Positions 1 through 4,516 of a stretch of 4,516 bases of DNA are shown here, piece by piece. A program made the translations under genes and the position numbers. The stretch comes from a virus. Lineage: Duplodnaviria; Heunggongvirae; Uroviricota; Caudoviricetes. Every line of letters starts with the position of its first letter. Positions within the stretch are counted from its first letter, which is position 1. Under the pieces are notes generated by a model. It saw only the letters and a program-made list of their open reading frames with translations. It did no database searches and was not told the origin of the DNA. The stretch lies in the IMG/VR virus record IMGVR_UViG_2660238190_000008. One strand, given 5' to 3'.

Positions 1-288
1 TCAAAATCGGTGGAGCTGCATGACAAAGTCATCGGGCATTATCTGAACATAAAACACTATCAATAAGTTGGAGTCATTACCCCAAATTGGAGTTATAGCC
101 TCCATACCAGCAGTGATATCCCCTTTCTGCTCATCTGGACGAGCAAGTGATACCGTTAATGACTTAATTTCAGCATCTATTTTTTTCTGGCTAACTCCCA
201 CGTTAGGTGTTGAAAAATTCAATGGTGGCACACTAGCGCAACCTGTTAAAGAACCAATAATCATGGCTAATAATATTATCTTCTTCAT
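1..288 (-). CDS. predicted outer-membrane lipoprotein, 95 aa (mature about 78 aa)
   Basis: Complete ORF on the - strand (ATG at 288..286, stop TGA at 3..1). N-terminus MKKIILLAMIIGSLTGC has a basic n-region, hydrophobic core and lipobox L-T-G-C with Cys17; the residue after Cys is Ala, so no Asp inner-membrane retention signal. AAGGT Shine-Dalgarno lies 6 nt upstream of the ATG. No homolog recognised from memory. Confidence 0.6.
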   Translation of the reverse strand: MKKIILLAMIIGSLTGCASVPPLNFSTPNVGVSQKKIDAEIKSLTVSLARPDEQKGDITAGMEAITPIWGNDSNLLIVFYVQIMPDDFVMQLHRF

Positions 289-450
289 AAATTTACCTTA
301 TTGTTATAACCAAAGGAATTATAAAGTAAAAAAGTTCACTATCACTAGCCATTAACGACATCAATTTCAGAGAAACATGGTACTCATTTCCACAAATTTG
401 ACACAAGTCATTTTCATCTACATATTCCATCATACTTGATGCATATGTTA

Positions 451-479
451 TTGAAGCCTCTATCCTATCCGTTCATAAT
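451..479 (+). promoter_or_regulatory. sigma70-like promoter candidate for the small membrane protein gene
   Basis: TTGAAG (451-456), 17-nt spacer, CATAAT (474-479), about 65 nt upstream of ATG 545 in an AT-rich intergenic region. Hexamer match only; no experimental support. Confidence 0.3.
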
Positions 480-544
480 AGCAATAGTTACCCGGGTGAT
501 AGTACCTCTATGATTACTCGTCTTTCTGATTGATTGGATTAAAT

Positions 545-736
545 ATGCGCGCCAAAATTTATCAACTTTCGTTATGGATATTTATTTCGTTTCTAGCGAT
601 CTATGCCTTTATTATCTATAAAGGTTCTTATATTGGAGTAGCATTGCATCAAATTGCTTGGATCATCATTATTGCCTCTGGCTTGATTGCTAGGCTAACT
701 AAACCAAAGCAAAAACCAATTTCGTCCAATAATTAG
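545..736 (+). CDS. small two-helix membrane protein, 63 aa (ORF track extends it to a TTG at 530)
   Basis: ORF MRAKIYQLSLWIFISFLAIYAFIIYKGSYIGVALHQIAWIIIIASGLIARLTKPKQKPISSNN has two hydrophobic segments of about 18 and 13 residues separated by a short loop, with a basic C-terminal tail. First ATG is at 545; the TTG at 530 has no better ribosome-binding site. Sits in the AT-rich island with a promoter-like element upstream. No homolog recognised. Confidence 0.5.
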   Translation: MRAKIYQLSLWIFISFLAIYAFIIYKGSYIGVALHQIAWIIIIASGLIARLTKPKQKPISSNN

Positions 737-772
737 ACATGTATTAAAAAATGATATTTTTATGTACATAGT

Positions 773-949
773 CTATTGAAAATTGCCGCGATAAAATGCC
801 AACACCCGCTTCATCGCGGCACTCTGGCGACACTCCTTGAAAATCAGATTCGTGCTCACCTTTCCTTCCCGTTCTTCCCTGGTAGCGAACCGGTAATACA
901 CCGTTCGCCAGACCTTACCATCAATAACTAAGATTCCTGTCCGCGCCAT
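773..949 (-). CDS. hypothetical small protein, 58 aa, oriented against the pL-direction genes
   Basis: ORF on the - strand below the ORF-track size cutoff: ATG at 949..947, stop TAG at 775..773, translating to MARTGILVIDGKVWRTVYYRFATREEREGKVSTNLIFKECRQSAAMKRVLAFYRGNFQ. Balanced, protein-like composition, but only a weak AGG about 11 nt upstream as ribosome-binding site and several CGG/AGG codons. No homolog recognised. Confidence 0.35.
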   Translation of the reverse strand: MARTGILVIDGKVWRTVYYRFATREEREGKVSTNLIFKECRQSAAMKRVLAFYRGNFQ

Positions 950-1118
950 TTTGGCCGCAGCCTGATTTATGCTGGTTACTGTTGCGCCTGTTAGGCGCGA
1001 TCACTTTCGTCTACTCCGTTACAAAGCGAGGCTGGGTATTTCCCGGCCTTTCTGTTATCCGAAATCCCCTGAAAGCACAGCGGCTGGCTGAGGAGATAAA
1101 TAATAAACGGGGAGCTGT

Positions 1119-1310
1119 ATGCACAAAGCATCTCCCGTTGAGTTAAGAACGAGTATCGAGATGGCACATAGCCTCGCTCAAATTGGAGTCAGGTTTGTGC
1201 CAATACCAGTAGAAACAGACGAAGTATTTCATACGTTAGCCGCATCCCTTTCACAAAAGCTGGAAATGATGGTGGCGAAAGCAGAAGCAGATGAGAGAGA
1301 CCAGGTATGA
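1119..1310 (+). CDS. lambda orf63-like small protein of the pL operon, 63 aa
   Basis: ATG at 1119 with GGAG 5 nt upstream; 192-nt ORF, the same length I recall for lambda orf63 and in the same operon position. Its stop overlaps the next ATG in an ATGA motif (1307-1310). Confidence 0.7.
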   Translation: MHKASPVELRTSIEMAHSLAQIGVRFVPIPVETDEVFHTLAASLSQKLEMMVAKAEADERDQV

Positions 1311-1320
1311 CAACCACTGA

Positions 1321-1602
1321 ATGCATTTTTCTGGCAGCGGGCTTCATATTCTGTGTGCTTATGCTTGCCGACATGGGGCTTGTTCAGTGACACCTCAGCA
1401 GGAAAACGCCCTTCGCAGCATTGCCCGTCAGGCTAATTCTGAAATCAAAAAAGCCAGACAGCAGTTTCCGGATAAAAACGTCGATGACATTTGCCGTAGC
1501 GTACTGAAGAAGCACCACGAAACGGTAACGCTGATGGGATTCACACCGACTCATTTAAGCCTGGCGATCGGCATGTTAAACGGCGTCTTTAAGGAACGGT
1601 GA
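1321..1602 (+). CDS. hypothetical pL-operon protein, 93 aa from ATG 1321 (alternative 71-aa form from GTG 1387)
   Basis: Long ORF in the same orientation as the flanking phage genes. ATG 1321 has no good Shine-Dalgarno; GTG 1387 overlaps the stop of an upstream 27-codon ORF (GTGA) and has GGGG 9 nt upstream, so the true start is uncertain. Confidence 0.5.
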   Translation: MHFSGSGLHILCAYACRHGACSVTPQQENALRSIARQANSEIKKARQQFPDKNVDDICRSVLKKHHETVTLMGFTPTHLSLAIGMLNGVFKER

Positions 1603-1700: not shown

Positions 1701-1922
1701 ATGGCAGACATCATTGATTCAGCATCAGAAATCGAAGAATTACAGCGCAATACAGCAATAAAAATGCGCCGCCTGAACCACCAGGCTATATCTGCCACTC
1801 ATTGTTGTGAGTGTGGCGATCCCATAGATGAGCGAAGACGCCTGGCCGTTCAGGGTTGTCGGACTTGTGCAAGTTGCCAGGAAGATCTGGAGCTTATCAG
1901 TAAACAGAGAGGTTCGAAGTGA
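1701..1922 (+). CDS. TraR/DksA-family C4 zinc-finger protein, 73 aa (lambda Orf73-like)
   Basis: 73-aa ORF with C-x2-C ... C-x2-C spacing (HCCECGDP ... CRTCASC) and an N-terminal acidic/helical region, the TraR signature. Same length as F-plasmid TraR and lambda Orf73. Stop overlaps the Ea22 start codon in a GTGA motif. Confidence 0.85.
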   Translation: MADIIDSASEIEELQRNTAIKMRRLNHQAISATHCCECGDPIDERRRLAVQGCRTCASCQEDLELISKQRGSK

Positions 1923-2470
1923 GCGAAATTAACTCTCAGGCACTGCGGGCCAAGGCAGAAAAAGCAACGTGTGGTGAGTGGTCGCTCGAATATGGAGAGA
2001 GCCGATTTGATGGTGATGATGCGCTAATTCATCGTGAAGTTGCTGGATATATTCCTATTTGCAGAATTGAAGGAGCGCATCCAGAAAGCGGTTTCGATGA
2101 AGATTTCCAAATGGAACAGCAGGCCAATGCTGAATTCATCGCCGCAGCCAATCCCGCTACCGTCTTGGCGCTGCTGGATGAGCTGGAAAGAAACCAGCAA
2201 TACATCAAACGCCGCGACCAGGAGAACGAGGAGATTGCGTTAACGGTAGGGAAGTTGCGCGTTGAGCTTGAGGCAGAAAAACAGCGGGCAAAGGATCTGT
2301 TTATGGAAAATGCTCGGCTTAAGTCAGGTATAGCCGGTCTGATACACCTCGGTATTCGATATGCAGATGTTGAGGTCATGAGAATTGCTGGAGATGCCCA
2401 GCTTTCTACCCCATGCACTGACAGCATCATAAACAGCATTGCAACAGGCATTCGCATCAAAGGAGAGTGA
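1919..2470 (+). CDS. ea22: Ea22-family protein, 183 aa, GTG start
   Basis: N-terminus MSEINSQAL and C-terminus GIRIKGE match my recollection of lambda Ea22. Central coiled-coil-like segment (LLDELERNQQYIKRRDQENEEIALTVGKLRVELEAEKQRAKDL). Position between the TraR-like gene and ea8.5 is as in lambda. It is 3 nt longer than I recall for lambda ea22, so it is probably a variant allele. Confidence 0.8.
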   Translation: MSEINSQALRAKAEKATCGEWSLEYGESRFDGDDALIHREVAGYIPICRIEGAHPESGFDEDFQMEQQANAEFIAAANPATVLALLDELERNQQYIKRRDQENEEIALTVGKLRVELEAEKQRAKDLFMENARLKSGIAGLIHLGIRYADVEVMRIAGDAQLSTPCTDSIINSIATGIRIKGE

Positions 2471-2672: not shown

Positions 2673-2954
2673 ATGAGTATCAATGAGTTAGAGTCTGAGC
2701 AAAAAGATTGGGCGTTATCAATGTTGTGCAGATCCGGTGTCTTGTCTCCATGCAGACATCACGAAGGTGTTTATGTAGATGAAGGTATAGATATAGAGTC
2801 GGCATACAAATATTCCATGAAGGTTTATAAGTCTAATGAAGACAAATCCCCATTCTGCAATGTGCGAGAAATGACTGATACCGTGCAAAATTATTATCAC
2901 GAGTACGGTGGAAACGATACTTGCCCTCTCTGTACAAAACATATAGATGATTAA
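2673..2954 (+). CDS. ea8.5: Ea8.5, 93 aa, Cys/His-rich small protein
   Basis: AAGGAG Shine-Dalgarno 7 nt upstream of the ATG. 93 aa with Cys and His residues (CRHHEG ... CPLCTKH). Length and spacing to xis are exactly as I recall for lambda ea8.5. Confidence 0.85.
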   Translation: MSINELESEQKDWALSMLCRSGVLSPCRHHEGVYVDEGIDIESAYKYSMKVYKSNEDKSPFCNVREMTDTVQNYYHEYGGNDTCPLCTKHIDD

Positions 2955-3249: not shown

Positions 3250-3468
3250 ATGTACTTGACACTTCAGGAGTGGAACGCACGCCAGCGACGTCCAAGAAGC
3301 CTTGAAACAGTTCGTCGATGGGTTCGGGAATGCAGGATATTCCCACCTCCGGTTAAGGATGGAAGAGAGTATCTGTTCCACGAATCAGCGGTAAAGGTTG
3401 ACTTAAATCGACCAGTAACAGGTAGCCTTTTGAAGAGGATCAGAAATGGGAAGAAGGCGAAGTCATGA
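3250..3468 (+). CDS. xis: excisionase Xis, 72 aa
   Basis: Protein MYLTLQEWNARQRRPRSLETVRRWVRECRIFPPPVKDGREYLFHESAVKVDLNRPVTGSLLKRIRNGKKAKS matches lambda Xis as I recall it. The 3' end overlaps int by 23 nt, as in lambda. Confidence 0.95.
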   Translation: MYLTLQEWNARQRRPRSLETVRRWVRECRIFPPPVKDGREYLFHESAVKVDLNRPVTGSLLKRIRNGKKAKS

Positions 3469-4516
3469 GCGCCGGGATTTACCCCCTAACCTTTATATAA
3501 GAAACAATGGATATTACTGCTACAGGGACCCAAGGACGGGTAAAGAGTTTGGATTAGGCAGAGACAGGCGAATCGCAATCACTGAAGCTATACAGGCCAA
3601 CATTGAGTTATTTTCAGGACACAAACACAAGCCTCTGACAGCGAGAATCAACAGTGATAATTCCGTTACGTTACATTCATGGCTTGATCGCTACGAAAAA
3701 ATCCTGGCCAGCAGAGGAATCAAGCAGAAGACACTCATAAATTACATGAGCAAAATTAAAGCAATAAGGAGGGGGCTGCCTGATGCTCCACTTGAAGACA
3801 TCACCACAAAAGAAATTGCGGCAATGCTCAATGGATACATAGACGAGGGCAAGGCGGCGTCAGCCAAGTTAATCAGATCAACACTGAGCGATGCATTCCG
3901 AGAGGCAATAGCTGAAGGCCATATAACAACAAACCCTGTCGCTGCCACTCGCGCAGCAAAATCAGAGGTAAGGAGATCAAGACTTACGGCTGACGAATAC
4001 CTGAAAATTTATCTAGCAGCAGAATCATCACCATGTTGGCTCAGACTTGCAATGGAACTGGCTGTTGTTACCGGGCAACGAGTTGGTGATTTATGCGAAA
4101 TGAAGTGGTCTGATATCGTAGATGGATATCTTTATGTCGAGCAAAGCAAAACAGGCGTAAAAATTGCCATCCCAACAGCATTGCATGTTGATGCTCTCGG
4201 AATATCAATGAAGGAAACACTTGATAAATGCAAAGAGATTCTTGGCGGAGAAACCATAATTGCATCTACTCGTCGCGAACCGCTTTCATCCGGCACAGTA
4301 TCAAGGTATTTTATGCGCGCACGAAAAGCATCAGGTCTTTCCTTCGAAGGGGATCCGCCTACCTTTCACGAGTTGCGCAGTTTGTCTGCAAGACTCTATG
4401 AGAAGCAGATAAGCGATAAGTTTGCTCAACATCTTCTCGGGCATAAGTCGGACACCATGGCATCACAGTATCGTGATGACAGAGGCAGGGAGTGGGACAA
4501 AATTGAAATCAAATAA
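3446..4516 (+). CDS. int: tyrosine site-specific integrase Int, 356 aa
   Basis: 356-aa ORF starting MGRRRSHERRDLPPNLYIRNNGYY and ending REWDKIEIK, matching lambda Int from memory. Tyrosine-recombinase catalytic residues are present in the expected contexts (GQRVGDL Arg, HELRSL His-x-x-Arg, LLGHKSD His, SQYRDD Tyr). Stop TAA is the last codon of the window. Confidence 0.97.
   Translation: MGRRRSHERRDLPPNLYIRNNGYYCYRDPRTGKEFGLGRDRRIAITEAIQANIELFSGHKHKPLTARINSDNSVTLHSWLDRYEKILASRGIKQKTLINYMSKIKAIRRGLPDAPLEDITTKEIAAMLNGYIDEGKAASAKLIRSTLSDAFREAIAEGHITTNPVAATRAAKSEVRRSRLTADEYLKIYLAAESSPCWLRLAMELAVVTGQRVGDLCEMKWSDIVDGYLYVEQSKTGVKIAIPTALHVDALGISMKETLDKCKEILGGETIIASTRREPLSSGTVSRYFMRARKASGLSFEGDPPTFHELRSLSARLYEKQISDKFAQHLLGHKSDTMASQYRDDRGREWDKIEIK

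Follow-up and report, generated by a model that had tools for sequence, protein, structure and literature searches.

Small lipoproteins are carried by several coliphages, and the locus considered here raises the question of whether a short open reading frame at the edge of an Escherichia coli prophage encodes a further one. The window, which is the whole 4,516-nt stretch of DNA that was analysed, carries at its first end a 95-codon reading frame on the minus strand. The initial annotation described its product as a phage-borne outer-membrane lipoprotein of unknown family, to be considered beside proteins such as Cor and Llp that block receptor use by superinfecting phages. The reading frame is almost certainly a fragment produced by IS1 transposition into codon 69/70 of the gene for a 186-aa outer-membrane lipoprotein in a defective lambda-att E. 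coli prophage. Nothing found contradicts this reading, and the case is already known in kind: an ordinary IS1-disrupted copy of an annotated, conserved lipoprotein gene.

A chimeric reading frame

The first 288 positions of the window contain the following features.

1-288, minus strand: 95-codon reading frame, ATG to TGA, with the stop codon at 1-3, inside IS1
1-81, plus strand: terminal 81 bp of IS1, with 100% identity to the IS1A/IS1B ends over 1-80
1-81, minus strand: IS1-encoded read-through tail of 26 residues, GNDSNLLIVFYVQIMPDDFVMQLHRF, plus TGA, antisense to the 3' end of the transposase gene
59-81, reverse complement: 23-bp terminal inverted repeat of IS1 (IRR), GGTAATGACTCCAACTTATTGAT, exact match, equal to 8208-8230 of the draft contig L010
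82-90: one copy of the target-site duplication, (C)CAATTTGG on the gene strand, 8-9 bp
82-288, minus strand: native 5' fragment of 69 codons, same sequence as nt 1-207 of the uninterrupted allele (E. coli BS74R-D, IAL7250)

The composite nature of the reading frame is evident from profile searches and from direct alignment. A PHROG profile search divides the protein: residues 9-71 correspond to the first 63 of the 178 positions in phrog_12521 (E 2e-36), and an unrelated family, phrog_27209, accounts for residues 69-95 with its last 27 positions. Alignment with the intact 186-aa protein shows the two to be the same through Trp69 and unrelated thereafter. The native portion comprises signal peptide residues 1-16, the lipobox LTGC with Cys17, an extended linker, strand beta1, and the start of helix 1; residues 70-186 are missing and 26 foreign residues stand in their place. 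The stop codon lies inside IS1, and the length of 95 aa is therefore a product of the insertion. The protein of that length in the initial annotation resolves into 69 native codons and an antisense reading of the IS1 end, which supplies 26 codons and the stop.

The foreign portion is multicopy. Across 4,961 E. coli genomes, window positions 1-80 recur 71,432 times at 100% identity, annotated as IS1 transposase, and the plus strand of positions 1-66 translates to the 21 residues SKSVELHDKVIGHYLNIKHYQ followed by a stop, which we take to be the C-terminus of the IS1 transposase InsB (its last 21 residues and stop). When window 1-780 was compared by megablast with 5,426 complete E. coli genomes, 280 of them aligned only from position 76 onward, and tens of thousands of short multicopy matches also appeared. 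The insertion was hidden because the window began at the stop codon inside IS1.

The database record of the chimera comes from one assembly. An exhaustive profile search of the family surfaced WP_442672016.1, a 95-aa E. coli 'hypothetical protein' that differs from this chimera by one residue, in the IS1-encoded tail, and this entry led to the draft contig L010. The 95-aa product has no exact match in an index of 153 billion genes. The exact window junction is absent from GTDB species-representative genomes and JGI metagenome contigs, as expected because it is a strain-level IS insertion, and is present, with one base different, in one draft assembly. The 95-aa product is not a genuine gene product; the reading frame is what remains of a broken gene and does not define a new small phage lipoprotein.

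The insertion event in a sister contig

The remainder of the insertion can be read in the draft E. coli contig: its positions 3773-8288, read as the reverse complement, differ from the 4,516 bases of the window only at window position 37, within IS1. The gene order in the contig is the 95-aa reading frame, the IS1 transposase, a 107-aa reading frame, and a 150-aa reading frame. Its IS1 is the full 768-bp element, and the encoded transposase carries the Pfam domains InsA, HTH_Tnp_IS1, and DDE_Tnp_IS1. The initial annotation had suggested that partners might lie beyond position 1, and the contig bears this out: to the left of the window come the remaining IS1 sequence, the 3' portion of the lipoprotein gene, and a gene for a 150-aa SlyB paralogue.

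The two halves of the gene fit together across the element. An identical run of 9 bases, (C)CAATTTGG, is found at both ends of IS1 in the contig, one copy of it within the window. The 5' run equals nt 1-207 of the intact gene and the 3' run equals nt 199-561, an overlap of 9; one junction base could belong either to the IS1 end or to the target, and the duplication is given as 8-9 bp. The 107-aa reading frame is the 3' remnant of the gene as gene callers report it, from an internal Met. Removal of IS1 and one copy of the duplication from the contig restores the intact 561-nt gene exactly. The event in the contig is a simple IS1 transposition into the gene. The inner IS1 end (contig positions 8950-8975) carries a variant terminal repeat that begins GGTGGTGCTGCC, compared with the canonical GGTGATGCTGCC.

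Prophage setting

The window represents the int-proximal arm of a lambdoid prophage, and the prophage location given in the initial annotation is confirmed; the prophage is a defective one of the lambda-att type. Beyond the lipoprotein start, the features are as follows.

289-772: 484-bp spacer, from the lipoprotein start to the ren remnant
773-994, minus strand: N-terminally truncated ren pseudogene, matching positions 50-112 of 116 of phrog_142, 'Ren-like exclusion protein'
979-1146, plus strand: orf60a/DUF1317
1119-1310, plus strand: orf61- and orf63-like genes (DUF1382)
1701-1922, plus strand: TraR/DksA zinc-finger gene
1919-2470, plus strand: Ea22-like gene
2673-2954, plus strand: ea8.5
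listed between ea8.5 and xis, plus strand: 55-aa reading frame
3250-3468, plus strand: xis
3446-4516, plus strand: lambda-type int

A deletion scar at about 979-999, where the truncated ren overlaps or abuts orf60a, marks the loss of the segment exo-bet-gam-kil-cIII-N-cI-cro-cII-O-P, which covers recombination, immunity, and replication; the prophage is defective because this exo-to-P region is deleted. PGAP describes ren in sister genomes as 'protein ren, incomplete, missing N-terminus'. The Ea22-like coding sequence of the sister genomes (window 1919-2338) is likewise flagged by PGAP as incomplete, with the C-terminus missing, a further sign of prophage decay.

A possible Shine-Dalgarno sequence, AAGG, lies 8-11 nt 5' of the lipoprotein ATG on direct reading, and the spacer contains one sigma-70-like site on the minus strand (345 to 318). 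The promoter scan round the gene returned 3 sites with 3.6 expected by chance, and the terminator scan likewise did no better than chance; the promoter result being at chance level, no claim of an autonomous promoter is made. A search of the window against Rfam found nothing. The spacer also holds a 68-aa reading frame at 530-736 on the plus strand, with a TTG start (63 aa from an internal ATG) and two hydrophobic segments of the two-transmembrane kind. It is antisense to its neighbours, is annotated only in phage PhiR30_1 and not by PGAP, and has no match in Pfam, NCBIfam, or PHROG.

The intact parent gene

The intact allele is a 561-nt coding sequence for a 186-aa protein, WP_000720581.1, located in the nin-side region of the defective prophage. 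PGAP names this protein either 'YajG family lipoprotein' or 'hypothetical protein', and the label 'unknown family' in the initial annotation does not hold, as RefSeq already annotates the parent, whose first 69 codons open the reading frame. E. coli 042 is another genome with an intact allele. Five complete E. coli genomes (BS74R-D, IAL7250, IAL7252, IAL7254, and IAL7255) are 100% identical to window 82-1500, a stretch that takes in the ren/orf60a scar common to all five. In the two that were examined, BS74R-D and IAL7250, the prophage adjoins ybhC at the lambda attachment region and the gene is uninterrupted; it is followed by the gene for the 150-aa protein WP_000825400.1 and then by ybcN, ninE, ybcO, rusA, ylcG, quuD, a porin gene, and lysis genes.

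The family is large and strikingly conserved. An exhaustive profile search recovered 970 representatives at 50% clustering (E≤1e-3), and full-length members span about 165-290 aa. The E. coli prophage copy is 60-70% identical to homologues from Xanthomonas, Lysobacter, Stenotrophomonas, Bordetella, and Alcaligenaceae. No Pfam domain was found in the intact family protein, and a PDB sequence search with the family profile gave nothing meaningful.

The lipoprotein signal noted in the initial annotation is genuine. The N-terminus reads MKKIILLAMIIGSLTG followed by CAS, with the lipobox LTGC, Cys17, and Ala at +2. The layout consists of a charged n-region (MKK), a hydrophobic h-region (IILLAMIIGS), and LTG-C17, which conforms to the lipobox pattern [LVI][ASTVI][GAS]C. 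The Pfam model LPAM_1 scores weakly on residues 1-18 (14.1 bits, with a cut-off of 20). The lipobox is not a chance motif: Cys17 does not vary across 45 family members with 58-83% identity to the reference, and conservation of Gly16 among them is 90% or higher. Under the Lol sorting rule, a lipoprotein with no Asp at +2 goes to the outer membrane, and the Ala at this position makes the outer membrane the probable destination of the protein.

Structure prediction gives the intact protein a compact domain. The AlphaFold2 model (pLDDT 85.9, pTM 0.79) has a signal helix at 2-17, an extended linker, strand beta1 at 40-48, a helix at 62-80, strands at 90-101, 109-121, and 127-139, and a helix at 148-170. 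The predicted domain is thus a beta-alpha-beta-beta-beta-alpha unit, with two helices packed on a four-stranded sheet and a lipidated linker ahead of it at the N-terminus, and the predicted fold is of the type seen in the lipoproteins LptE, PelC, PqiC, and CsgG. A structural-similarity search of BFVD returned no convincing match.

The cut at residue 69 leaves, in this model, strand beta1 and 8 residues of helix 1, and the native fold therefore cannot form. The truncated product would lack about two-thirds of the mature domain and would be non-functional; any of it that the cell did make would be a lipidated peptide of 79 residues ending in a hydrophobic nonsense tail. Judged against the model, the truncated fragment is best regarded as a pseudogene, with the gene inactivated in the window. 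The element would also uncouple the downstream SlyB-like gene from any promoter upstream of the lipoprotein gene.

A SlyB-like partner and a mobile gene pair

The gene that follows the intact lipoprotein gene lies outside the window and is located as follows (coordinates of the sister-genome locus L003 equal window coordinates plus 4,919).

L010 9334-9786; L003 4198-4650: 150-aa SlyB paralogue, WP_000825400.1, left of the window

The 150-aa partner is a full-length match to E. coli SlyB (E 1.3e-14 to PDB 7OJF, about 34% identity) and shares with it the lipobox, the glycine zipper, and the C-terminal beta domain (PDB 7OJF/7OJG). The pairing is conserved: in seven of the eight contexts examined in gamma- and beta-proteobacteria, the lipoprotein gene and the gene for the SlyB paralogue stand together with stop and start codons overlapping or abutting. 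The pair is found in the E. coli prophage, Klebsiella oxytoca, Bordetella, Xanthomonas, Lysobacter, an Alcaligenaceae genome, and Edaphovirga; in the eighth context, the SlyB-like partner is absent beside the Luteimonas homologue. The SlyB-like partners are mutually 53-75% identical. The flanks of the cassette are unrelated from case to case and mostly non-phage, and include toxin-antitoxin genes, recombinases, umuDC, and integrases. Among 50,697 phage records the lipoprotein gene occurs in one, PhiR30_1, and the plasmid collection yielded only one match, from Vibrio, at 26% identity.

The chromosomal slyB gene is monocistronic and PhoPQ-regulated. SlyB is described, in a preprint that summarises Janssens et al., as forming ring oligomers that enclose nanodomains of lipid and outer-membrane proteins under outer-membrane stress (bioRxiv 10.64898/2025.12.22.696046). 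The intact parent would be a Lol-sorted outer-membrane lipoprotein that acts together with a translationally coupled SlyB paralogue, and the pair would constitute a horizontally mobile cassette for outer-membrane stabilisation or remodelling, carried as a moron in some lambdoid prophages. Judging by the class of fold, the homology of the neighbour to SlyB, and the linkage of the two genes, outer-membrane homeostasis is the best guess for the role of the intact cassette. No functional study of the pair was found in the literature.

A more specific proposal would treat the intact parent as part of an unrecognised mobile two-lipoprotein unit, in which the two proteins form a ring complex that sequesters particular outer-membrane proteins or lipids. 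This is a rather speculative prospect, with perhaps a slim chance of being correct; if true, a prophage-borne cassette would give lysogens tolerance of envelope stress, or would exclude phages by hiding their receptors. As a conserved, mobile, and uncharacterised cassette, the pair could be of modest interest for work on outer-membrane stabilisers of the SlyB/YfgH type.

Alternative assignments

Three other identities have been given to, or suggested for, the parent or its fragment. The best supported places the parent within the YajG family proper (Pfam PF03923), with whatever role the chromosomal YajG has; this reading falls somewhat short of an even chance. YajG is an outer-membrane lipoprotein that reportedly purifies together with LptDE and is exposed in part at the surface. 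The PGAP label favours it, as does the comparable architecture of the two proteins (186 aa for the parent, 192 aa for YajG). YajG itself has been listed among the LptDE-associated, surface-detectable lipoproteins (PMC12065857). An hhalign comparison of the family with the YajG profile gives 85% probability and E 6e-6 (columns 2-130 against 3-134) with a shared LQEaL helix motif, but the score, over 119 columns, comes partly from the signal peptide, and the YajG profile is shallow, its members being at least 84% identical. The family model itself does not recognise the parent: the PF03923 HMM has no match at E≤1 to the intact protein or to ten divergent family members, whereas E. coli YajG, as the positive control, scores 5.5e-52 and 176 bits. 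The NCBIfam equivalog for YajG, PRK11627, reaches 11-12 bits against a cut-off of 242 bits. Genomic context also argues against common membership, as yajG of E. coli K-12 has no linked SlyB paralogue; there, it adjoins ampG. The sequence comparisons are consistent with YajG being possibly a distant relative, rather than the family to which the parent belongs.

The second alternative takes the 95-aa reading frame at face value, as a bona fide small phage lipoprotein that blocks receptors against superinfecting phages in the manner of Cor or Llp. It is very unlikely. The stop codon and the last 26 residues are IS1 sequence, the native protein has 186 residues and not 95, and the IS1 junction refutes a small-phage-lipoprotein reading of the 95-aa form. 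The initial annotation had itself remarked that the protein resembles none of Cor, Llp, and Bor, and the searches agree: the Cor PHROG reaches only signal-peptide residues 1-24 (E 0.035), and no PHROG annotated as Llp or Bor is among the matches of the reading frame at E≤1. No PADLOC defence model was hit by the truncated product, its intact parent, the SlyB-like partner, or the 68-aa reading frame. Most homologues stand in non-phage chromosomal settings, in keeping with the single phage record noted above, and the idea of superinfection exclusion finds no positive support. The intact pair, in the mechanism outlined for it, would not be a receptor-blocking exclusion protein.

The remaining assignment, a UDP-N-acetylglucosamine acyltransferase of the LpxA type, has next to no chance of being right: it derives from names only, in many NCBI and UniRef entries and in the PhiR30_1 record, and is ruled out by fold and family searches, as Pfam and NCBIfam give no hexapeptide-repeat or acyltransferase match, the parent bears a lipoprotein signal peptide, and the model predicts an alpha/beta lipoprotein domain of two helices and four strands, not a left-handed beta-helix.

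The preferred reading, a lipoprotein gene cut by IS1, carries two practical consequences for annotation. A plausible 'new small phage lipoprotein' can be a fragment made by IS1, and reading frames that stop at the edge of a window should be compared with IS ends ahead of any interpretation. For this lipoprotein family, the widespread name 'UDP-N-acetylglucosamine acyltransferase' appears to be a propagated mis-annotation.

Comparison with known systems

The intact protein and its neighbour resemble several characterised envelope systems to differing degrees. With lipoproteins of the LptE/PelC/PqiC (DUF330)/CsgG class, the parent shares a predicted fold at a sequence identity of 6-15%, and its gene neighbourhood differs: it has no LptD, PelB, PqiAB, or CsgEF neighbour, and its partner is a SlyB-like glycine-zipper lipoprotein. 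In comparison with chromosomal SlyB, the 150-aa partner is a paralogue that resides on a mobile cassette, behind the gene for the 186-aa lipoprotein. YajG (PF03923, Lipoprotein_16) and the parent are both outer-membrane lipoproteins of about 190 aa with weak profile-profile similarity, but the parent gene is set in a different neighbourhood, coupled to the SlyB paralogue. Cor (phi80/N15), Llp (T5), and Bor (lambda) are, like the protein first proposed here, small accessory lipoproteins of temperate or lytic coliphages; no relationship in sequence or fold to them was detected, and a separate bor gene is already present downstream in the same prophage family.

The insertion itself follows the pattern of gene disruptions by IS1 (IS1A/IS1B) in E. 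coli and Shigella, with a 768-bp element, a canonical IRR, a direct duplication of 8-9 bp, and InsA/InsB in the sister contig. As in such disruptions, the target gene is left as two pieces, a 3' fragment and a 5' fragment whose reading frame runs on into the IS; compared with a typical case, nothing is unusual except the variant inner repeat and the one ambiguous junction base. Set against WP_000720581.1, the window allele has the same first 69 residues, lies in the same prophage with the same flanks, and shares the same ren/orf60a deletion scar.
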